26,988 bases of DNA from Planctomycetaceae bacterium (GCA_035434085.1 DAORWD010000001.1:1-26988), one strand, 5' to 3'; positions 10,081 through 21,756 are shown, numbered from the stretch's first letter. Notes: generated from the sequence alone by a model not told the origin. Made by a program: numbers and translations.

Positions 10081-12654
10081 CTAACTTCCAGGCATTCCTT
10101 TTCGGCGCGGTTCCACCGCCTTACGGATCGAATGCTCGACCTCCTGCCAGCCTTTACGCTGGGGAGAATACTCCAGCACCGGTTTGGCGTTCCAGGTGGC
10201 GGTCTGGAACTTCTTCAATTCCTGCTCCAGCGGGACGTTGGAGTCCCAACCGTCGCGGTCGAGTGGAACGACGATTAGTGTGCAGGATTTATCCTCGGCC
10301 TTCGCACGTTTCACCGCTTCCGGTGCCTCGGTCTGCTGAATGAAACTCGAAGCACAGCTATTGATCGAGTGGAACAAGAGCACGATGTCCGCCCCGGCCA
10401 ATTCCTCCAGGATGCGCTCCTCCCATTCCTCGCCGGCCACCAATTGTTTGTCGTCCCAAGTCTGAATGTAGCCGCGCTCGCCGAGGATGGTCAGGTGCTT
10501 CGACAGCGGCCGAATTTTCTTTTCGTCGTCATGGGCGTAGCTGACAAACAGCCGCATCCGGGGCAATGCAGAGTCCCGATCGGCTTCGCAGGCTTGCGGG
10601 CTTTCGATGCTGTCCAGCGTCTCCGTCACCATCACCGTTGCCTGCTCTCCATCTTTGGTTTCTTCTTCGACTTTCCTGGTCCCTTTCTCTTCGAGCAACC
10701 GCAGCTTTCCCACTCGCACCCAGGAATCCCGGTGCTCTTCCATTTCCACTTCTTCCACCACTCGGACCTTGCCGTGCAAGACAGTCAGATGCGCGCGGAT
10801 CAAGTCAAACAGACTCTGCGGATCATCCGCCGTGTCATCGATGACGGCCACCTCGGTGCGGCGTTCGGTGCGGTTGAGACGGACCAGCGCCCGGCATTCG
10901 GCCCATTCCAGCACCACGCCGCTGCGCCAGCGCCAGTCGGGATGCTCTTCACTCATCTCGTGGGTCCGCACGATGAACCGCGGCAGCAGTCCGGGCGGCA
11001 GTGCGTCGGGATACGAGAATCGCAGCCGCCGCACCTGCGGACCTCGGAACTCCGTGAAGGCTTCCGGCTGTTCTTCGCGCAGCAATTCGGGAATCAGCCA
11101 GCCCGTGCCATCCAGCGGAAACGCCACCTCGAACTTCTCCATCAGTTCGAGCACGAGGCCGTGTTTGTCTTCCGGGTATTCGGCCGGGTCGAGCGCCTGC
11201 GTCATGGACGAAAGCTGCATCACGCCGTGGCAGTCCTGTTTCTGGACGAATCGGATCAGGCCGTAGATCGCTTCCGTGACCCATTTCGGCTTCAACACGC
11301 TGGTCGATCGCAGTCGATGGTGGTCTCGGAAATTGAGCGCGATTCCCAACCGGTGCAGCGTCTGCACCAAGCTGTCTTGCTTGCCAACGTCGTCCACGCC
11401 GGTCTCCTGGCACAACGCCTGGTAGTCCCGGTATTCCAGGAAACTCTGCGGCATCTCGGTCAGCTTTTGCTTCACGCGGTGCCACTTCTTCGACACGCCC
11501 AGCCACACGTCCCGCATGCCGCCCACGGTCTTCGCCAGCAGCTCGCGCAGCGTCTCAATTCCGCGCAGCGTGAAGGCACCCGTCTCGACGAACCCAGCGA
11601 TTTGCGGGCAGCGTTCCTGCAGACGGAAGCGATCGACCGAAAAGGGGTGATCGTCGTACTTCGTCAGAACCACGATCACCGGACTGTCGCCGCCAAAGCT
11701 CTGGATAAACCGCAGCCAGTAGTCGGTCTCCAATTCCCAATTGCTTTCCCGGCCCTGTAACACGAGCAGATAGACGCAGCGTTCGGCGAGAAAAATCTGA
11801 TGTGTGCCGTGCAGAAATTCCTGCCCGCCGAAATCCCACACATGTCCCGTCGCAGTTCCCTGCGCGCAGTTCAGGTCAAGCGGCAGCACGTTGATGCCCG
11901 GCGTCTCAAGTTCCTCTTTGTCCGTGGGCTCTCCGCGCAAGGCCTTCAAGAGCGATGTCTTCCCGACTCGCCCACGTCCGACCAACAGCAGCCGCACTTC
12001 CCGCATCGGCTCCTTACCTTCGGCCTGTCGCGAAAAATAGAAGTCGAGGATCGCCTGCGGATTAGCGGGTGGATTATTTTCGGCTGATTCGCTAAACATT
12101 GGCCCCAACAGTTCGGTGGGCAGTTCCAAGGCTTCGTTGCCGTGCAGTGTCAGTTCTTTGAGTGATCGTAGGTCTTTCAAACTTTCCGGCAGTTTTGTCA
12201 GCGCGTTGTTTTCCAGAATGAGCCGTTCCAACCCGGCCAACCGCCCGATCTCCGGTGGCAACGTGCTGAGTAGATTGCTGCCAAGGTAGAGCGACGTCAA
12301 CGCGGTAAACTTGCCGATCGCCTGCGGCATTGTGCTGAGTCGGTTGCCTTGCAGGACAAGCCACTTTAATGCCGTGAGGTCGCCGATCTCTGCTGGCAGT
12401 GTGCTGAGCTTGTTGCTGCTGACGTCGAGTGACGTCAACGCCGTGAGCTGGCCGATCTCCTGCGGCAGTGTACGGAGTTGGTTGCCTTGCAGAATAAGCC
12501 ACGTCAACCCTTTCAGCTGGCCGAGGTCCAGTGGCAGCGTGCAGAGGCCCAAATGGCTCAGATCGAGATGACGGCCGCCCTCCTCGCGACAGGCGTCGAT
12601 CCGTCGCTGGGCTTCGGCGTAGCCGTCATTGGACTTGCTGCTGGTCTTTGCCAT
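10081..12654 (-). CDS. LRR-Roc-COR-TIR (prokaryotic Roco) protein
   Basis: About 7 23-aa LRRs; Roc P-loop GRGRVGKT, switch II WDFGGQE, TKYD; COR region (LHRLG..L.F, VLKPKWVTEAIY, PPGLLPRFIVR); C-terminal TIR-like domain LFVSYAHDD...WDDKQLVAGEEWEERI...ADIVLL...SFIQQTE (10084-10554). Start reassigned to ATG 12654. Confidence 0.92.
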   Translation of the reverse strand: MAKTSSKSNDGYAEAQRRIDACREEGGRHLDLSHLGLCTLPLDLGQLKGLTWLILQGNQLRTLPQEIGQLTALTSLDVSSNKLSTLPAEIGDLTALKWLVLQGNRLSTMPQAIGKFTALTSLYLGSNLLSTLPPEIGRLAGLERLILENNALTKLPESLKDLRSLKELTLHGNEALELPTELLGPMFSESAENNPPANPQAILDFYFSRQAEGKEPMREVRLLLVGRGRVGKTSLLKALRGEPTDKEELETPGINVLPLDLNCAQGTATGHVWDFGGQEFLHGTHQIFLAERCVYLLVLQGRESNWELETDYWLRFIQSFGGDSPVIVVLTKYDDHPFSVDRFRLQERCPQIAGFVETGAFTLRGIETLRELLAKTVGGMRDVWLGVSKKWHRVKQKLTEMPQSFLEYRDYQALCQETGVDDVGKQDSLVQTLHRLGIALNFRDHHRLRSTSVLKPKWVTEAIYGLIRFVQKQDCHGVMQLSSMTQALDPAEYPEDKHGLVLELMEKFEVAFPLDGTGWLIPELLREEQPEAFTEFRGPQVRRLRFSYPDALPPGLLPRFIVRTHEMSEEHPDWRWRSGVVLEWAECRALVRLNRTERRTEVAVIDDTADDPQSLFDLIRAHLTVLHGKVRVVEEVEMEEHRDSWVRVGKLRLLEEKGTRKVEEETKDGEQATVMVTETLDSIESPQACEADRDSALPRMRLFVSYAHDDEKKIRPLSKHLTILGERGYIQTWDDKQLVAGEEWEERILEELAGADIVLLFHSINSCASSFIQQTEAPEAVKRAKAEDKSCTLIVVPLDRDGWDSNVPLEQELKKFQTATWNAKPVLEYSPQRKGWQEVEHSIRKAVEPRRKGMPGS
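12229..12504 (-). repeat. ~138-bp tandem duplication inside the LRR region
   Basis: GACGTCAACG occurs at 12293 and 12431 (offset 138) and the flanking sequence is closely similar. Protein repeats 2/4 and 3/5 are pairwise alike. Boundaries are approximate. Confidence 0.75.
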
Positions 12655-12959
12655 ATTTTGTTTCCTGCGTTTACCTCGATGGGTTCCGACGACCGCCGGA
12701 CCCACGCCTTGATGCGTTGCAATTCCGAGAGTTTCTCCACGAGTCTCTGGTCAGTGATTCTCGCGGCGGCCGACCTGTTGACTTGAAGCCAGCCCAATTT
12801 GCCCGCCATGATCCCAAGGGTACACCCGAAAGTCCATCACTGCCCCATTCGGCAACGGTGTGACGGATTTTTGTAGCCGAATTCGAAGTAGCTTGGGACC
12901 ATCGTCCCGAGCGAACAAGGAGTTTCGGACGGAACTTTTCGACTGTCCCAATTGCCAAA

Positions 12960-13140
12960 GACCCCATCCGGCTCGCCCGGATCGGTGAATCTGATGGAGT
13001 GCTAAGAACTCGCCCCCATCACCGGTTCCCTTCTTCCAGTCCTGCCGCCGAAGGCGGCAGGACTGGAAGAAGTGGGCTGTGGCCGGGCTCCTTTTCTAGC
13101 TCACCATCATCTTCACCAATGGCACGAGGCCATTGGGGTC
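12960..13140. repeat. Inverted doublet of the GACCCC-hairpin repeat with a central perfect hairpin (REPIN-like)
   Basis: Copy at 12960-13004(+) GACCCC ATCCGG CTCGC CCGGAT CGGTGA and copy at 13096-13140(-) GACCCC AATGGC CTCGT GCCATT GGTGA AGAT GATGGTGAGCTAG. A perfect 20-bp stem with a GAA loop lies between them at 13030-13072. Confidence 0.8.
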
Positions 13141-13142
13141 GA

Positions 13143-13301
13143 AGGAACCAAGCCATCGCGGGCGATCGCCAGATAGATTCGCGGCCCTGTGATCATATTG
13201 GAATTCGTTGCGCCGAATGTCGAGATCATCACACCGACCGCAGCAACTTTGGCCCCCACCGGACCGAACGTCACCTGAAACACGTCGACCGCGACGACGG
13301 A
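13143..13301 (-). pseudogene. Fragment of an APC-family amino acid permease
   Basis: 53 codons read SVVAVDVFQVTFGPVGAKVAAVGVMISTFGATNSNMITGPRIYLAIARDGLVP, matching the APC 'ISTFG..N.....PR...A.ARDG..P' segment. The rest of the gene is missing on both sides. Confidence 0.8.
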
Positions 13302-15440
13302 CTAATGCACGGACGTAAATTCACTGCTGTTGAGATAGGCCCAGAGCATGTCCTCGGTGGCTGTGCGGATGGCCTGATCGGCAGGCAGGGAACGAGTCAG
13401 TGCCCGGTAACGACTGCGGAAAACTTTTTCCTCTCCGGCGGATGGTTCACGATTCAGCGTTGCCATTGCGATACGCTCCAACGTTTGAGCAATTCCCTGA
13501 GGGCCGCTATGGACAGCTTTCGTCACTTCAGCGGCGGTCATGGGAATGGCGGCCTGCAGGTCTTCACCATTCATCATCAGCATCGCCTGAGCAATATTAC
13601 CCTCGAACGCCAGTTGTTCGTCGTTTTCGTCGGTCCCGTAGGCTCGCACAAACTGTTCAACCCATTCTCGACGATGCGTCGAGCCAATCGAGGAATCGAT
13701 CGGCTGGGCAGCGGCGGATCGGATCGCAATTCGAATCGAATCGTAAACCTGCTCTGGTGCCATCTGTCGCGGATACGCTCGAGAAAACAATGGCGTGCCG
13801 CCTTCTTCAGGATCATCCAATGCCAGAGAAGAAGCAGGCTGAACGCTGGACAGCTGAAACGATTGCGAAAGCGTCAGCCAACGCATTAGCCGCCTTACGT
13901 CATAGTCTGAATCAACAAATGACTGCGTGAGGAGACTGACTAGTTCAGGATGGCTGACTGGGTTATGGAAGCCCAGATCGTCGATTGGATTTGAAAATCC
14001 GTAACCAAAGACCTGCGCCCAGGACCGATTGACCATCGCCTTCGCCACCATCTGGTGACTGTCCGCCGCTAAAAGTCGTACAAGTTCCGAACGGCGTGAA
14101 CTTGAATCGTCCGCCGCCATGGCGTGGCCATCAAATTCGGGCAGCACGGCTTTCTCCTGGCCGCGCAGGGTCTCGTAAAACGTCATTCCCGCCGGGGCAG
14201 AATCGGAAAGCACAAGGACATTCTTCTCTCGTCCGTCCACTGTCTTTACCGCCAGTGGTTTTCGTTCGGCCTGTTTGAAAAATGCATTCAGAGACCAAAA
14301 TTCATCCTGGTGGCGATCTTTGGCGAACGGATGATCATGACACTGAGTACACTGCACTTGCTGACCCAGAAACAATCGTGCGGTCACGGCAGTTGCAGGC
14401 GTGGCTTTATCGTTCAAATGAGCAAGCAGAAAATTTGTGGCTCCGTTTTGATCACTCCGGCCTTCGGCGGCAATCAGATCTCCAACAGTTTCCATCCACG
14501 GGCGATTTGCTGAAAACTGCCGCAACAAGAAATCGTACAACGCGCCTTCATCCACTTTTCCAACGTTGCTGCGGCCGATGAGCAGATTGGTCCAGGTGAC
14601 CGAGAGACTTTCGGCGTAGCGAGGATCATCCAGCAGGGAATCAACCAGTTCGGAACGTTTCCTCGGAGACTTCCGGGCGACAAACGTGGACACTTCTATG
14701 ACGGTCGGAATCCGACCGCTCAGCGTCAGGTAGCAGCGGCGAACCCATTCGTAGTCGTCCGCCTGTTGTGCGGGGACGACATCGTTGTCGGCCCAGGCAG
14801 CGGCCACGAGTCGATCTATTTCAGCAATGACTGCCGCATCATCCAGCGCCACCGCTGGTGCGTCATCGGACGGAACACGCATTTCGCCAGGCGGCAAGGG
14901 TACGCCAGCGTCGTTTCGAGAAGTCGATGCAATGGAATCTGGCAACATGCCGTTTAATGGGAGTGGTGCCAGATGATTTGGCTCATCTGGAGGCACGACA
15001 TTCGGATTGGCAGCTGCGTTTTCACCTGGTACCCGATGTTCGATAGCTGAATTTGTTTTTGTGATGGACTGTAGATGAGTGCCAGCCACATTGATTGGTG
15101 CCGCTGGGTGCCAAAGAATAGACCCCAGTCCCGCAAGCAGCAGACATGCGGCGACCGCTGTCGCCATTCGAACGCTGAATCTCGACCAGGGCGATGCTAC
15201 GGGAGAAAGCTTGTACTGTAACGCTGTTGCTTCGGTCAGGACTGAAGTTAGATTTGAACCGGCCAGAACGCCGGCATCCCAGGCAAGTTGTCCGTGCAAC
15301 TGTGTGAACTCAACAAACATTAACTGAAGCGAACGGTCAGTCCGCAGCAATGACTGCAGTTCGAGCAAGTTCTCATCGGACAACTGCTGCTCGCACCACA
15401 GATTGCATAACGTCAGAAAATGTTCCTGCGGGTTGTTCAC
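13302..15440 (-). CDS. Putative anti-sigma factor fused to DUF1549/DUF1553 domains
   Basis: The GTG start at 15440 overlaps the sigma stop (GTGA) and has a GGAGGT RBS. Architecture: N-terminal helical domain (QLSDENLLELQSLL...FVEFTQLHGQL), TM helix (~15111-15167), Pro/Ala linker, DUF1549 (EWVRRCYLTLSGRIPT, CTQCHDHPF), DUF1553 (MVNRSWAQVFGYG, HPELVSLL, LWAYLNSSEF). Confidence 0.85.
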   Translation of the reverse strand: MNNPQEHFLTLCNLWCEQQLSDENLLELQSLLRTDRSLQLMFVEFTQLHGQLAWDAGVLAGSNLTSVLTEATALQYKLSPVASPWSRFSVRMATAVAACLLLAGLGSILWHPAAPINVAGTHLQSITKTNSAIEHRVPGENAAANPNVVPPDEPNHLAPLPLNGMLPDSIASTSRNDAGVPLPPGEMRVPSDDAPAVALDDAAVIAEIDRLVAAAWADNDVVPAQQADDYEWVRRCYLTLSGRIPTVIEVSTFVARKSPRKRSELVDSLLDDPRYAESLSVTWTNLLIGRSNVGKVDEGALYDFLLRQFSANRPWMETVGDLIAAEGRSDQNGATNFLLAHLNDKATPATAVTARLFLGQQVQCTQCHDHPFAKDRHQDEFWSLNAFFKQAERKPLAVKTVDGREKNVLVLSDSAPAGMTFYETLRGQEKAVLPEFDGHAMAADDSSSRRSELVRLLAADSHQMVAKAMVNRSWAQVFGYGFSNPIDDLGFHNPVSHPELVSLLTQSFVDSDYDVRRLMRWLTLSQSFQLSSVQPASSLALDDPEEGGTPLFSRAYPRQMAPEQVYDSIRIAIRSAAAQPIDSSIGSTHRREWVEQFVRAYGTDENDEQLAFEGNIAQAMLMMNGEDLQAAIPMTAAEVTKAVHSGPQGIAQTLERIAMATLNREPSAGEEKVFRSRYRALTRSLPADQAIRTATEDMLWAYLNSSEFTSVH

Positions 15441-16009
15441 TGAACACCTCCCGTTGCGAGATGACGGCGGATACATTCAAGCAGAACCCGGCGCACCCGT
15501 CCCAGGGACTGATACACTGAATTCGCAGGACGGCCAAGCTGCTCAGCCACGTCGTCCCCAGTTGAGCCCATCGCGTAACGACGGCGAATTAGTTCCTGAT
15601 CCTGCGCCCGCAATTTGCCGATGCATTCTGTCAATGCGTCCCGGCGCTGTTCAAAGTCGATCGGTTGTTCTTCAACCCGATCCGCAAGCAATTCAACCAC
15701 GTCGTCACCGAGTAAATGCATGCGATGATGACGCGATCTGCGGAACCGAAACACTTCAAGGCGTGCGATGGCCCGGCCCCAGGCAAGGAAGTTTGTTCCT
15801 GGTTCGAATTGAGTCCACTTACTGAGGATCACGACGTTTGTTTCCTGCAGCACTTCTTCGGCATCTGCTGTTGTTTGAACAAGTGGAAGGATAAATAAAT
15901 AGAGCGCGCGTTGAGACTGCGTAAACAACCGCACAAAGTCTTCGCTCGGACCCTGGTGGTTATCCGCAGAGACACTTGAAGATTGTCCTACCGAATCCGC
16001 CATGGACAT
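15437..16009 (-). CDS. ECF sigma-70 factor, Rhodopirellula/Verrucomicrobium type (TIGR02989-like)
   Basis: Region 2 (FVRLFT..QRALY.FI...DAEEVLQETNVV...WTQFEPGTNFLAW) and region 4 (CIGKLRAQDQELIRRRY...VAEQLGRPANSVYQSLGRVR). Start is 16009 or 16003. Confidence 0.93.
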   Translation of the reverse strand: MSMADSVGQSSSVSADNHQGPSEDFVRLFTQSQRALYLFILPLVQTTADAEEVLQETNVVILSKWTQFEPGTNFLAWGRAIARLEVFRFRRSRHHRMHLLGDDVVELLADRVEEQPIDFEQRRDALTECIGKLRAQDQELIRRRYAMGSTGDDVAEQLGRPANSVYQSLGRVRRVLLECIRRHLATGGVQ

Positions 16010-16041
16010 TCCCGCGACGTGAATTAGACAGTCGTTACAGC

Positions 16042-16076
16042 TCAGGAGCCCGGACTGCAACAGTTCGGGCTCCTGA
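16042..16076. repeat. Intergenic hairpin between the DUF1501 gene and the sigma gene
   Basis: TCAGGAGCCCGGACTG-CAA-CAGTTCGGGCTCCTGA: 16-bp stem with one mismatch/wobble and no U-tract. Confidence 0.65.
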
Positions 16077-16113
16077 TGTTACATCATCTCTTGCTCACCT
16101 GTCACGATGAAAC

Positions 16114-17415
16114 TTAGCCGATCAGTTCCTGAATCGGGGTTCCGCCGTTGGCCAGTTTCATTGGACGACCACGTTTTGACGTGTGGACGGTATTCACTGG
16201 AATACCCATAGCCAAAGCAACAGTTGCCCAAATGTCGCCTGGCAGGTACGCCTTGCTGCCTTCGGCAATCTGCAGTCCATCTTTATCGGTCGCACCAACA
16301 GCCTGACCATTCTTCAGACCACCGCCACCAATCATAACGCTCCATGAATTGGCCCAATGATCGCGGCCAATATCCTGGTTAATACGTGGAGTACGACCGA
16401 ACTCACCCATCCATACGAGAACGGTATCGTCGAGCATTCCCCGCTGTTTCAGGTCAGCCGTGATTGCGGCAATTCCTTTGTCAAGGACTGGCAGACGCTG
16501 ATTCTTCAGCGTGTCAAACACGCCAGCGTGAAGGTCCCAACCGCCCAGGTTGACTTCCACGAACGGCACACCGACCTGAACAAGGCGGCGGGCCATCAGC
16601 AGTCCCTGACCGAAGCCATTCTTGCCGTAGGCTTCTTTTGTGGCTTCCGATTCAGCTTCAAGGCCCAGAGTCGGATCGGACTTTGCAGCATCAAAGGCAG
16701 CCATCTGATTTGAGGTCATCAGGTTGACGGCGCTCGCGTAAATATCCTTGTGGGCCTTTGGCAATTCTCCGCGACGTGATGCCATGAAGCTGGATTCGAT
16801 TTCTTCCAGCATGGTGAGGCGATCACCAAGTCGGGTCTTGCCCTCTTCCGACGGCGAGTTACGAATCCGACCAGTATTATCGACCACGAACGGAGCGTGC
16901 GTCATGCCAAGGAAACCAGCCTGCCCAGCACCACCATCAACAGAAACGAACGCCGGGATTTCCAGAGCCTTACGGTTCTTGCCGAGCTCGTAACTGACAA
17001 CCGAGCCAAACGTTGGATGCACAACGGTTGGGTTAGGGACATAAGAAGTCTGCATGTAGTACCGCCCGCGGCCATGGTCCGCTTCACGAGTACTCATGGA
17101 ACGCACGATTGACAGATCACCAAACATTTTGGCTGTTTCAGGCATGTGCTCGCTAATCTGCACACCGGAAGCCGCCGTATCGATCGGCCTGAATTCTCCA
17201 CCATTCTTTGAACCTGGCTTCAGGTCCCAAATGTCGATCGTGGGCGGACCGCCACCCATCCACATCAGAATACAAGCCTTTTGCTTTGATCTGACGACGT
17301 CCGCATTTGCCTGAACGTGCGACAGAAAGTTCATGGCGGGCACCGTAGCCGCCGCAGTTGCCATATGCTGCATAAAATGCCGACGATTCATTCCGTAGTT
17401 ATTCCAAAGAGCCAT
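16114..17415 (-). CDS. DUF1501 domain protein with Tat signal
   Basis: NRRHF twin-arginine motif; [66 protein letters not shown]...GRDHW. Confidence 0.93.
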
Positions 17416-17490
17416 CTAAATCACTCCCGTAGGTGAAAAACATAAGTAAAAGCTGGTGCGACGGCGACACGCCGATCCGCGATCAAATCA

Positions 17491-19164
17491 TTAATGAATG
17501 AACACAAATTCATTCGAGTTCAGCAATGCCCAAAACAAGTCCTGATAGCCATTCAGTTTGTTGGTTCGGTAGCTGTTCCCGTTCAACATCTTCATGACCT
17601 TATTGAGTTCAAACTTGGTCGGATGACGACTGAGAGCCGCCATATACAACTCCTGTATTTTCTGAGGCTCCGTCCCCGGCTTACTAAACTCTTCAAACAG
17701 AAAACTTCCGCGTTCGACGCTGCAGGCTTTTTCAATTAACTCACTGTTCATCATCATCAAAGCCTGAGGAATCGTTCCATTGAACATTGTCGATTCGGCG
17801 TTCTCATCGTTGTCGAATGCGACCACAAACTGCTGCATCCATTTGCGACGCTGCTCTTCCTGAGCACTCCAGCCTCCACGGCCAGCCTGATGGGCGTTAC
17901 TGGCAACGATCAGCGAATCGTACATCTGTTCTGCCTGCATCTGCTTCAGATACATATGACTGAACAACGGCATTTCACCCGCAGCCGGATCATCGGACTT
18001 GTTCTTCTCGTTGAACTGACTCGTGAGTGCATAGGCTTCAGTGGCACAGATCGTGCGAATCAATTCTTTCAGATTGTAGCTACTGTTGACAAACTCACGC
18101 GACAACCGCTCCAGCAGTTCCGGATGACTGGCGGGATTGTGTGGCCCCATATCGTCCACGGGACGAGTGAATCCATATCCGAAGAAATGGCTCCACATGC
18201 GATTCACCATTGCTTGTGCGATATGCGGCGGCTGACCGTCAATTTCCTTCGTGAGCAATTTGCCAAACTCTATTCGGCGATCAGTATCCAGCCCAGGATC
18301 AACTTCCTGGCCTTCGAAACGCGGGAACGCCACCTGCATCATGCCGCTGCGTTTCTCGTAATAAACAGGTCCCTGAAAGTCCTGCCATACGACTTCTGAA
18401 TAGTCATCAACCATCCGCCCGGTGTTGGGATCCAGCTTTCGATGATCGCGCTTTCCAACCTGACGAAAAAAGCTGTTGTATTCCCAGAACTGATCCTGCT
18501 GCCACTTGTTGAACGGATGATTATGGCACTGTGTACACTGCACCTGAAGGCCAAGGAACAAACGCGTCGTCATCGCTGTAAGCTGAACTCCGTCGTCCTG
18601 ATTCTGCATCTGAGCCAGCGTGTAATTCACGGCACCATTCTCTTCGAAATGGCCCGAAGCCGTGACGGTATCGACGACAATTTCATTCCACGGACGATCC
18701 TTGGCAAATGCTTCGCGGAAGAACTTCTCCATCCCGACTCGGCTGACTCGACGCGGCGTAGCTCGACCAATCGTGTTGTTTGTCCAGACTGTCGTGAAAT
18801 TTCGGACGTAGTCCTCATCGGCAAGCAGCTTTTCGATCAGCACGAAGCGCTTGCGGGGACTTTTGTCATCCAGGAAGGCCTTCGTTTCTTCAAGAGTTGG
18901 AATACGCCCACACAGATCAAGGTAGATCCTGCGCACCCATTCCTCGCCTGATGCTGGCTCCGACGGAACGACTTCGTTGTCGGTCCAACCCTGACGCAAC
19001 TGCCCATCGACAAATTCGACGAGCGAACCTTCGGACGCTGCAGCGGGAACTGCCCCCTCGTCAGCAATTACGCGATCAAGAGAAATCAACCCCGCAGATG
19101 CCACTAGCGCCACCGCTGTGCAGACGATTCCAAAACGCGGTAACCGAACCCACTGAATCTTCAT
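17491..19164 (-). CDS. Secreted DUF1549/DUF1553 protein with CxxCH motif
   Basis: Signal-like N-terminus (MKIQW...AVALVASAGLI); EEWVRRIYLDLCGRIPT, CTQCHNHPF (18523-18537), MVNRMWSHFFGYGF, SHPELLERL, LFWALLNSNEFVFIH. Start reassigned to ATG 19164. Confidence 0.93.
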   Translation of the reverse strand: MKIQWVRLPRFGIVCTAVALVASAGLISLDRVIADEGAVPAAASEGSLVEFVDGQLRQGWTDNEVVPSEPASGEEWVRRIYLDLCGRIPTLEETKAFLDDKSPRKRFVLIEKLLADEDYVRNFTTVWTNNTIGRATPRRVSRVGMEKFFREAFAKDRPWNEIVVDTVTASGHFEENGAVNYTLAQMQNQDDGVQLTAMTTRLFLGLQVQCTQCHNHPFNKWQQDQFWEYNSFFRQVGKRDHRKLDPNTGRMVDDYSEVVWQDFQGPVYYEKRSGMMQVAFPRFEGQEVDPGLDTDRRIEFGKLLTKEIDGQPPHIAQAMVNRMWSHFFGYGFTRPVDDMGPHNPASHPELLERLSREFVNSSYNLKELIRTICATEAYALTSQFNEKNKSDDPAAGEMPLFSHMYLKQMQAEQMYDSLIVASNAHQAGRGGWSAQEEQRRKWMQQFVVAFDNDENAESTMFNGTIPQALMMMNSELIEKACSVERGSFLFEEFSKPGTEPQKIQELYMAALSRHPTKFELNKVMKMLNGNSYRTNKLNGYQDLFWALLNSNEFVFIH

Positions 19165-19659
19165 AAATTCACCCTGCATTGCCATGCGACTCCCGGAACT
19201 CCAACAATTCGAAAAACTGGCGGCACCAAATACAATACACCACACCCGGCTCCGGATGTTCGTGTGTTTCTAAAGGAATTCCACAGTATTCTACGGACTT
19301 CTGAACATTCCTGCATTCAATCACTGCTTTAGAAGCTCCGTTGTCGAAAAATCGCCCCATTCTTCTTTGCAGGATGTTCTGTTTCTGAATCACCAAAGAG
19401 CCGCGAAAAACTGAACGAATGAACATAATTTCGCTGCGTCATGCAGATCTTTCAGAACACTCCACGCTCCCCCAAATTCGGGTGTTATCTGCCAATACGT
19501 GGCAATCGAGTGAATCACAACCATCGCTGTCCTATACTCCTCACGTCGCGAATCAGTGCCTGTCGCCACTTGAACCGGTGTTTGGCGACTCAAGCCTGAC
19601 TTTCCGCCGAAGTTGATTTTTTTCGGTTTCCCAAAATCTCGTTTTTGAAAGTTATTTTC

Positions 19660-20502
19660 GTGCAACGCCCCCAAGGACATTTCACTCCGCTGCCTGAACC
19701 CACCGTCGTCATGTCCGAAGGCTGGCACTGCCTTCACATTTATTATCGCGTCAATCAGGCGGCTTTGCTGGCAATCGCCCCGCCGGATCGCGCTCATGGT
19801 CGAGCCGAAGTGATCGAAATCCTCAATCCGCAAGGGGACTATGTTCCAGCCCGAATGCAGGTCTCGGTCGTGTCCGGACACCGTGCTGATCTTGGCCTGA
19901 TGCTCATGGACGCAGATCCGCTCAAGATTGACGCCGTGGTTCAGCGGCTGCGGGCCAGTCACCTTGGAACTGTGCTCGAACCAACGTACTCATTCGTGTC
20001 GATCACCGAAGTGAGCGAATACGTCCCGACCCCCGAGCAATACGCCGAGCGACTGCAGCGAGAGGGAACTTCTGCGGATAGCCCCGCGTTTCAGGCTAAA
20101 TTGAACGCCTATCGGCAACGTTTGCCTGCGATGAATCAGCAACGCCTTTACCCGGACTTCCCGCCGTTTCCGGTGATGACGTTTTATCCCATGAACAAAG
20201 CGCGACATCCACTGGCGAACTGGTACGACGAGCCATTCAGTGTTCGCGGCGCACTTATGGCCGAGCACGCGACGTCCGGTATCAAGTTCGCGGGCCGTGT
20301 TTCGCAATTGATCACGGCGTCCACTGGATTTGACGACTGGGAATGGGGCGTGACGCTGTGGAGCCGAATGCCGGAATACGTTAAGGAGATTGTGTACACG
20401 ATGCGTTTCGACAAAGCCTCGGCTCGCTACGCAGAGTTCGGTCCTTTCTATGTCAGCTACATCATGTCCGCCCGTGAAGCTCTTGAGCACTTGAGAGTCT
20501 GA
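19660..20502 (+). CDS. chdC: Coproheme decarboxylase (HemQ/ChdC; chlorite dismutase superfamily)
   Basis: EGWHCLH, GHRADLGLM, SFVSITEVSEY, FYPMNKAR...NWY...R..LMAEH, STGFDDWEWGVTL, KEIVYTMRFD..SARYAEFGPFYV. Start is uncertain (GTG 19660 or ATG 19711). Confidence 0.85.
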   Translation: MQRPQGHFTPLPEPTVVMSEGWHCLHIYYRVNQAALLAIAPPDRAHGRAEVIEILNPQGDYVPARMQVSVVSGHRADLGLMLMDADPLKIDAVVQRLRASHLGTVLEPTYSFVSITEVSEYVPTPEQYAERLQREGTSADSPAFQAKLNAYRQRLPAMNQQRLYPDFPPFPVMTFYPMNKARHPLANWYDEPFSVRGALMAEHATSGIKFAGRVSQLITASTGFDDWEWGVTLWSRMPEYVKEIVYTMRFDKASARYAEFGPFYVSYIMSAREALEHLRV

Positions 20503-20547
20503 AGCCATCGGAGTCGCTACTGTCCGCAGTTTCAAATCTGAGATCTC

Positions 20548-21756
20548 ATGTCACTCAAAATGCCGCGTTACGATATTGCAATCATTGGTGGTGGTATTGT
20601 TGGACTGGCGACCGCGTGGCAATTGACGCGATTGAAGCCCGGAGTGAAACTGATTGTTGTCGAAAAAGAATCGACGTTGGCGTTTCATCAGACCGGTCGC
20701 AATTCGGGGGTTATTCATTCGGGAATCTATTATCGCCCGGGCTCACTGCGCGCCCGCAACTGCCGAGAAGGCAAGTCCGCGCTGGAAGCATTCTGTGACG
20801 AATACGGCGTGGCATGGCAGCGCACTGGGAAGGTCATTGTCGCCACGCACGAAAGCCAGTTGCCTCAGCTGCGAACGATCTTTGATCGCGGGCAGCAGAA
20901 CGGCGTCGAATGTTCCATGATCGGCGTTGACCGCCTCAAGGAGTTGGAACCGCATTGTGCAGGAATCGAAGCGATTCATGTTCCAGAGTCCGGAATCGTT
21001 GACTACCCCGGCGTTTGCCAAAAGCTGGGAGAACTCATCCAGTCCGTCGATGGAGAGATCCGCCTCAATTGCCGCGTGAACGCGATTGATCAACACACGG
21101 ATTTTGTCGGTCTCAAGACTTCACAAGGCGACATCGAAGCCGCTCAGGTGATCAATTGCGGCGGTCTGCACAGTGATCGGATCGCGCGACAAAGTGGATT
21201 GAAGATGAAGGAACGAATTATTCCTTTCCGTGGTGAGTATTTCGAACTGAAACCCGCTGCTCATCACTTGTGTCGGACACTGATCTACCCTGTCCCGGAT
21301 CTGCGATTTCCATTTCTCGGCGTCCATTTTACCCGCATGATCCACGGCGGAGTTGAATGCGGACCAAATGCCGTTTTCGCCCTTGCCCGAGAAGGCTACA
21401 ACTGGCGTACGATCAATCTGCGAGACGTTTTTGAATCCCTGACCTACCCAGGTTTTTTTCGGCTCGCCATGCGCAACTGGAAAACGGGACTTGGCGAAGT
21501 CTGGCGGTCGCTGTCTAAAGCGGCATTCGTGCGCGCACTCCAGGTGCTGGTCCCTGAAATCCGGGCTGAGCATTTGCATTCCGCGCCCGCTGGAGTACGC
21601 GCTCAGGCACTGGGGATGGATGGCAAATTGCTCGACGACTTCGTGATTCTTCGTCACGAGCGAGTGATCAACGTCTGCAATGCACCGTCACCCGCAGCGA
21701 CGGCGTCCCTGAATATCGGCAAGCATATTGCTGAGCAGGCGGTCGGGCTTTCCTGA
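20548..21756 (+). CDS. lhgO: L-2-hydroxyglutarate oxidase (FAD-dependent)
   Basis: [79 protein letters not shown]. Confidence 0.93.

Follow-up and report, generated by a model that had tools for sequence, protein, structure and literature searches.

A conserved planctomycete gene unit in which an extracytoplasmic function sigma factor is followed by a membrane-bound paralog of a neighboring PSCyt2/PSD1 protein

We analyzed a 26,988-nucleotide (nt) stretch of DNA from a planctomycete of activated sludge (Planctomycetaceae bacterium, GCA_035434085.1 DAORWD010000001.1:1-26988; hereafter, the window), which belongs to an assembly that is 96% complete and consists of 1539 contigs. On its minus strand lies a unit of four co-oriented genes that encode, in this order, a PSCyt2/PSD1 (DUF1549/DUF1553) protein, here termed A, a DUF1501 protein, a sigma factor of the extracytoplasmic function (ECF) type, and a membrane protein, here termed S (Table 1; positions are those of the whole window, and S residues are numbered from the start of the open reading frame, ORF). 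An original prediction, made from the sequence by itself, had described these four genes and quoted peptides from them. All four genes are present on that strand and every quoted peptide is found in the translations, including CTQCHNHPF of A and CTQCHDHPF of S; the only detail to be corrected is the start of A, which is likely to be at 19179 rather than 19164. The ORF of A as such extends over 17491-19245, and alignment of the upstream regions revealed that the ATG at 19179 is the start common to the relatives, with an AGGAG ribosome site ahead of it. A matched the Pfam families PSCyt2 (2.6e-40) and PSD1 (3.6e-37) and has a single N-terminal hydrophobic segment according to its hydropathy. The DUF1501 protein has the N-terminal sequence NRRHF, and the arginine pair at residues 11-12 is invariant in 12 relatives. 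The sigma ORF covers 15437-16060, with a probable start at the ATG that is kept in relatives, and its product possesses regions 2 and 4 only (Pfam Sigma70_r2 and r4_2); its score of 139.7 bits against TIGR02989 exceeds the cut-off of 124.55 and places it in this subfamily of ECF (group 4) sigma factors.

S consists of a 90-residue N-terminal part, one hydrophobic segment, a variable proline-rich linker, and a PSCyt2/PSD1 part. Its GTG start codon overlaps the TGA of the sigma gene by 4 nt (GTGA), and a GGAGG sequence is positioned 6 nt upstream, so that the translational coupling of sigma and S that had been proposed is plausible. Both A and S hold PSCyt2 and PSD1 along with a CXXCH sequence, a candidate heme motif, whose two Cys and His are invariant in 25 sequences.

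Table 1. Features of the four-gene unit and its flanking elements, in window coordinates
Feature	Position	Strand	Basis
ECF-type promoter-like motif (CGAACAT, 14 nt, TGGTGTA)	19236..19262	-	Same place in 16/16 related loci
Gene A, PSCyt2/PSD1 (DUF1549/DUF1553) exported or anchored protein	17491..19179	-	Pfam; conserved ATG and AGGAG; hydrophobic segment
CTQCH of A	18523-18537	-	
DUF1501 protein, twin-arginine signal, alkaline-phosphatase/sulfatase-like	16114..17415	-	Pfam 1.5e-92; structure matches
Stem-loop between DUF1501 stop and sigma start	16043..16075	-	Fold energy -36.6 kcal/mol, z -3.9
ECF sigma, TIGR02989 (Rhodopirellula/Verrucomicrobium) subfamily	15437..16003	-	Pfam, NCBIfam; conserved ATG
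S, single-pass membrane protein	ORF 13302-15476; GTG start 15440	-	Start as in database relatives
S cytoplasmic anti-sigma-like N-terminal domain (predicted), ORF residues 13-72	15261..15440	-	Conserved block, profile, complex model
S transmembrane segment, residues 102-123	15108..15173	-	Hydropathy
S periplasmic PSCyt2/PSD1 sensor domain (predicted), residues 206-724	13302..14861	-	Pfam; 38% identity to A; AlphaFold2 model
CTQCH of S	14337-14351	-	

The unit is real, old, and well conserved. The order A-DUF1501-sigma-S was the same in every relative with enough flanking sequence: the complete module was found in 15 of 18 related contigs (L001-L018), the other three being cut by contig ends, and it was kept in 10 further genomes of the family that represent about eight genera. 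The most distant relatives that were looked up (L019-L022, with 45-52% identity in S) displayed the same order and the same 4-nt sigma/S overlap in surroundings where all other genes are different. Wherever the sequence of a relative extends beyond the start of S, the sigma gene adjoins S. In other genera, the gap between DUF1501 and sigma is often just 12-47 nt, which indicates co-transcription, and the four genes most likely form one operon. One complete genome of the family (G270) has A and DUF1501 and lacks sigma and S. Its A falls inside the A clade of the tree described below, so the absence of the other two genes looks like a secondary loss.

A and S belong to one subfamily and are the nearest paralogs of each other within the genome. 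Comparison by BLASTP revealed 38% identity over 543 residues (E = 2e-120), far above chance, in agreement with the earlier statement that the outer part of S aligns lengthwise with A. The genome encodes approximately 70 PSCyt2/PSD1 paralogs and approximately 76 of DUF1501. Among the former, A and S are reciprocal best BLAST matches at 361 bits, the next scores being 267 for A and 229 for S, and S alone was found beside a sigma gene. Five complete genomes of the family were searched with A; in four of them, the top match was the A of the module and the second was the neighboring S, both well above the other copies. Phylogenetic analysis yielded two clades, one of A and one of S, that join with a Shimodaira-Hasegawa-like approximate likelihood ratio test (SH-aLRT) value of 100 and exclude 15 other paralogs from the same genome; when world-wide representatives were added, A plus S was still the best grouping, with a support of 94. 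The fused domain is therefore closer to its neighbor than to other paralogs of the genome, as the original prediction requires. The sub-clades of A and of S mirror each other, which points to one old duplication followed by co-inheritance. An alternative tree that joins S and a second class of tethered sensors (described below) in a clade was not rejected (log-likelihood difference of 1.4; approximately unbiased test, p = 0.47), and for this reason we make no claim that S was copied directly from A; the data do not distinguish an origin from A from one in an older lineage of tethered sensors.

The members of the unit differ in their conservation. Mean pairwise identity falls from 0.84 in DUF1501 through 0.73 in A and 0.67 in sigma to 0.57 in the sensor domain of S, with S evolving about 1.8 times faster than A. 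At the same time, 87 invariant residues, including CXXCH, are common to S and A. We read the faster rate of S, combined with the retention of these residues, as sensor-like evolution. Positions that are fixed in both clades and differ between them cluster at S residues 340-361, just ahead of CXXCH. No other part of the sensor is as well conserved as the stretch around them (window 14396-14473, S residues 337-362), in which each of the two clades has invariant residues of its own. At the place of Gln212-Met213 of A, S carries an invariant His353.

Judged by sequence comparison, S is an anti-sigma factor of the FecR/LamG type with its periplasmic part swapped for PSCyt2/PSD1. The N-terminal part contains a conserved block with invariant L23, L44, R45, H61, L64, and W66. 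A profile of S residues 13-80 had matches, often several per genome, in 69 of the 401 genomes of the phylum and in all 20 genomes of its own family, and the motif was located at the start of the ORF directly downstream of a sigma gene in all of the 29 best and 10 further loci (39/39). Outside the family, the ORFs with this motif carry FecR (PF04773) along with Laminin_G_3 or CBM96; seven of 10 that were scanned had a FecR match, six of these above the Pfam cut-off. Over its first 60 residues, S resembles the N-termini of the FecR/LamG proteins, with profile E-values of 1e-10 to 1e-15, and the sigma factors beside these proteins likewise score above the TIGR02989 cut-off. It is this profile kinship, together with the constant sigma adjacency and the architecture of the motif ORFs, that leads to the above assignment. 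The HxxxCxxC zinc motif was not seen in the alignment of S N-termini. Among 10 long motif ORFs of other families, a search for the fused form revealed none with a PSCyt2/PSD1 part.

The original prediction had proposed binding of the sigma by the N-terminal domain of S, and modeling of the complex leads to the same expectation. A model of the sigma with S residues 13-100 reached a score of 0.90, compared to 0.27 for the best control; of 78 solved complexes, 51 reached the mark used for such scores, as did 2 of 108 mismatched pairs. The modeled contacts involve S residues 18-72 and lie on regions 2 and 4 of the sigma (residues 51-67, 114-132, and 139-197). The model supports sigma binding by the S N-terminus without proving it. 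These findings would mean that a common planctomycete anti-sigma N-terminus, of a type as yet missed by curated models, can bear sensor domains besides FecR/LamG. Elsewhere in the same genome, the two sigma genes nearest to this one (C700:2619-4156 and C1192:1-2435) are each followed by an overlapping ORF with a similar N-terminal helical pattern and no PSCyt2/PSD1 domain.

In a library of 1.84 billion proteins, 79 of the best 150 representatives possess the same N-terminal motif, and 70 of these are at least 600 residues long and carry PSCyt2/PSD1. Most of the other 71 are proteins of 700-850 residues (representatives P0191-P0263) with an N-terminal LDxCLEEVLGGxxPPDL sequence, one transmembrane segment, and PSCyt2/PSD1. 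The genes of this second class overlapped the gene of a 173-residue ECF sigma by 4 nt in three of three cases looked up (L074, L075, and L076). That sigma is 24% identical to the one in the window and scores below the TIGR02989 cut-off, and the one locus with long flanks (L076) has no adjacent A-DUF1501 pair. Two further proteins of about 1070 residues (P0192 and P0214) have an FHA-like N-terminus and a C-terminal PSCyt2/PSD1; a hydrophobic segment was seen in P0192, and the PSCyt2/PSD1 domain of this protein falls inside the A clade. According to these predicted architectures, at least two different sigma/anti-sigma lineages use PSCyt2/PSD1 domains of the A/S subfamily as their outer modules.

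ECF promoters typically have a -35 element of the GAAC type, and a motif of this kind is located approximately 60-100 nt upstream of A, where it is kept in the related loci while the DNA around it varies. In five further genera of the family, the corresponding sequence upstream of A is CGAAC[AG]-N16-17-GGTA. The pattern CGAAC[AG]-N15-17-GGT[AG] occurred in 12 of 27 upstream regions versus 0.1 expected from shuffled sequences, a significance that is overstated because the relatives are not independent. G270, which lacks sigma and S, has no such motif ahead of A. The proposal that the sigma controls the cluster is strengthened by this conserved ECF-like motif, which the sigma presumably reads. 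A weight-matrix scan of the window's own genome gave the site upstream of A as its top match and was discarded, that site being itself a member of the training set. In G270, five tandem copies of the 14-nt repeat GTTTGATTTC(T/A)CTG occupy the place of the motif upstream of A (L073:1255-1330) and may represent the binding array of another regulator.

The hairpin between DUF1501 and sigma recurs at this position in nearly all related loci; the sequences differ in L011, L020, and L021, and that of L020 adds a T-run. It is probably a partial terminator or a stabilizer. The same spacer contains, in five relatives (L002, L005, L008, L016, and L018), a conserved 30-nt block with the reverse complement of CGAACAT or TGAACAT; the window and several relatives do not have this block. 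Contigs from four RNA libraries of activated sludge cover A, DUF1501, and part of sigma, leaving the body of S almost uncovered. One such contig (15912-16417) bridges DUF1501 into sigma, and the contigs reach 19221 and no further toward the promoter. This coverage is consistent with the operon and promoter as modeled here.

The AlphaFold2 model of the S sensor domain, with a mean predicted local distance difference test (pLDDT) value of 78 and a predicted template modeling score of 0.81, is mostly helical with a small sheet. No fold could be assigned by comparison to solved structures, for which the best Foldseek E-value was 0.13 and the best VIA-align Z was 7.2, covering a short helical part only. 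The stretch just ahead of CXXCH in S (residues 337-362) has pLDDT values below 50, and such poor modeling would fit an absent cofactor or partner. The DUF1501 model is weak (pLDDT of 55.6); all of its top matches in the PDB are sulfatases, LtaS, and other members of the alkaline-phosphatase superfamily, a predicted likeness that we take as a lead only. A PDB sequence search with A and DUF1501 yielded no match, and a search of the protein atlas for DUF1501 returned DUF1552 clusters only, below the 0.9 level.

With moderate confidence, we interpret A-DUF1501-sigma-S as a self-contained, self-regulating operon whose sigma is held by S and freed on cue. According to this scheme, the ECF sigma would be held at the membrane by S, a single-pass anti-sigma factor. 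S would use its CXXCH-containing domain to detect the same periplasmic cue that is acted on by A and DUF1501, possibly a substrate, a product, or a redox state. The most likely route to the inactivation of S would then be regulated proteolysis, with an RseP-type M50 protease acting last; the genome encodes M50 site-2 proteases. Transcription by the freed sigma would start at the CGAACAT...GGT(G)TA promoter ahead of A, thereby raising A and DUF1501, and read-through of the hairpin would also raise sigma and S to create positive feedback and, later, resetting.

Several observations weigh against this scheme. Residues 13-215 of S have no Pfam or NCBIfam match even at an E-value of 10, and thus no curated anti-sigma model such as zf-HC2, RskA, or DUF4880 covers them; the score of the modeled complex could reflect a memory of solved sigma/anti-sigma complexes. 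The motif upstream of A is not clearly present in several genera (e.g., L066 and L067), and a strict pattern applied to 41 genomes of the family gave counts like those of the reversed control, i.e., at chance level, so that it cannot define a regulon. There is no second copy of the motif ahead of the sigma gene; autoregulation would therefore depend on read-through of a strong hairpin. Finally, the RNA contigs reveal neither transcript ends nor transcript levels and could include carry-over of DNA.

It is credible, if unlikely, that the periplasmic domain of S instead binds DUF1501 at the interface used by A and so measures either free DUF1501 or the ratio of A to DUF1501; assembly of a complex, and not a small ligand, would then decide on the release or retention of the sigma. 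A always has DUF1501 next to it, no other protein of the unit is as conserved as DUF1501, the four genes are inherited together, and the 87 residues that are invariant in both clades could include a common interface. However, the sigma-coupled PSCyt2/PSD1 protein of L076, with no DUF1501 next to it, demonstrates that adjacency is not required for such sensors, and the fixed differences at S residues 340-361 look more like a retuned pocket than a kept interface. We consider it distinctly improbable that a genuine sigma/S pair controls genes elsewhere, with its position a legacy of duplication and the motif belonging to another sigma. With 38 ECF-like sigma matches, the genome has other candidates for reading a GAAC-type promoter, no copy of the motif precedes the sigma gene, and a genome-wide pattern search cannot separate the A site from chance matches; nevertheless, the four-gene order is held over many genera with small gaps and changing flanks, the motif upstream of A has disappeared in the one lineage that is devoid of sigma and S, and RNA-library contigs cross the DUF1501-sigma junction. 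We give very little credence to S being a membrane-anchored working paralog of A with an N-terminal peptide that recruits or sequesters the sigma incidentally or never binds it: purifying selection over the full length of S, its retained CXXCH, and the lack of a match to any curated anti-sigma family would suit such a role, but the N-terminal motif is common to FecR/LamG anti-sigma factors and always lies beside a sigma gene, the S and sigma genes overlap at start and stop codon, the modeled complex stood up to its controls, and the higher rate of change in S suits a regulatory copy.

In our preferred scheme of an S-held sigma, the unit is a variant of ECF/anti-sigma signaling and not a new kind of system. 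RseA/sigmaE and RsiW/sigmaW likewise pair a two-domain ECF sigma with a co-transcribed, translationally coupled partner, and RseA and RsiW resemble S in having a cytoplasmic N-terminal sigma-binding domain (predicted in the case of S), one transmembrane helix, and an extracytoplasmic sensor part. Those two proteins are inactivated by regulated intramembrane proteolysis, for which M50 proteases would be the counterpart here. In contrast to them, S has no curated anti-sigma match or zinc motif, its sensor is a 520-residue PSCyt2/PSD1 domain, and sigma and S stand at the end of the operon, behind their presumed targets. The pairs of TIGR02989 sigma and FecR/LamG protein, which are FecI/FecR-like, share with this unit the sigma subfamily and a homologous anti-sigma N-terminus, whereas S has PSCyt2/PSD1 in place of a FecR domain (PF04773) or lectin domain. 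Neither the unit itself nor the other ORFs of the window that were compared to Pfam include a gene for a TonB-dependent transducer. In SigI/RsgI of Clostridium thermocellum, the outer sensor is a carbohydrate-binding or glycoside-hydrolase-like module related to the sigma-induced enzymes (PMC4711584, PMC10328401). The likeness to that system is functional only. Its sigma and anti-sigma belong to unrelated families, its host is a Gram-positive bacterium, and the folds of its sensors are known; neither a SigI-type sigma nor an RsgI N-terminal domain was among the Pfam and NCBIfam matches of the unit, and the sensor here is a full-length copy of an adjacent gene that has no known function.

Gene modules of DUF1501 with PSCyt/PSD1 are known in bacteria of the Planctomycetes-Verrucomicrobia-Chlamydiae (PVC) group (Kamneva et al. 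2012, PMC3542564), and A-DUF1501 is the two-gene form of such a module, comprising a PSCyt2/PSD1 protein with CXXCH and a DUF1501 protein with a twin-arginine signal. In Rhodopirellula baltica, the ECF sigma RB10049 was proposed to regulate the PSD1/PSCyt2 protein RB10051 (Studholme et al. 2004, as cited in PMC2754498). We found no paper in which PSCyt2/PSD1 is part of the anti-sigma factor itself or in which the anti-sigma factor is a paralog of its neighbor, the report of Studholme et al. being available to us through that citation only.

A bolder and rather doubtful extension of these findings is that planctomycetes repeatedly tether a copy of a functioning PSCyt2/PSD1 protein of the periplasm to a sigma-binding peptide; such a copy would be either a heme-based sensor or a mimic of the subunit, in competition with the functioning protein for DUF1501. 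If this were true, the cell would directly read the assembly or redox state of the A-DUF1501 machine, which would hint at a general design rule and offer a first route to the function of hundreds of DUF1501/PSCyt genes. For about twenty years, no function has been known for PSCyt2/PSD1 and DUF1501, each with approximately 70 genes in this genome. A dedicated pair of sigma and anti-sigma with a sensor copy would provide a simple genetic read-out, in which a reporter fused to the A promoter could serve in a screen for the cue of the whole family.

The flanks of the unit contain several other features. An ORF upstream of A (19390-19962) was considered as a gene; it is not conserved and is probably not one. 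A palindromic hairpin directly follows the S stop codon (13016-13083), and an Rfam search over 13000-20600 gave only sub-threshold microRNA-like matches, all on this palindrome. Just downstream of the unit, the minus strand encodes a leucine-rich repeat protein with LRR-Roc-COR-TIR architecture (10081-12705, Pfam). Divergent from the unit on the plus strand (19645-21756) are a gene of the chlorite-dismutase family (Pfam 5.5e-48), possibly a coproheme decarboxylase, and a gene for a DAO-type flavin adenine dinucleotide (FAD) oxidoreductase, both kept at this place in close relatives only; the presence of a heme-related neighbor beside CXXCH proteins may be a coincidence.

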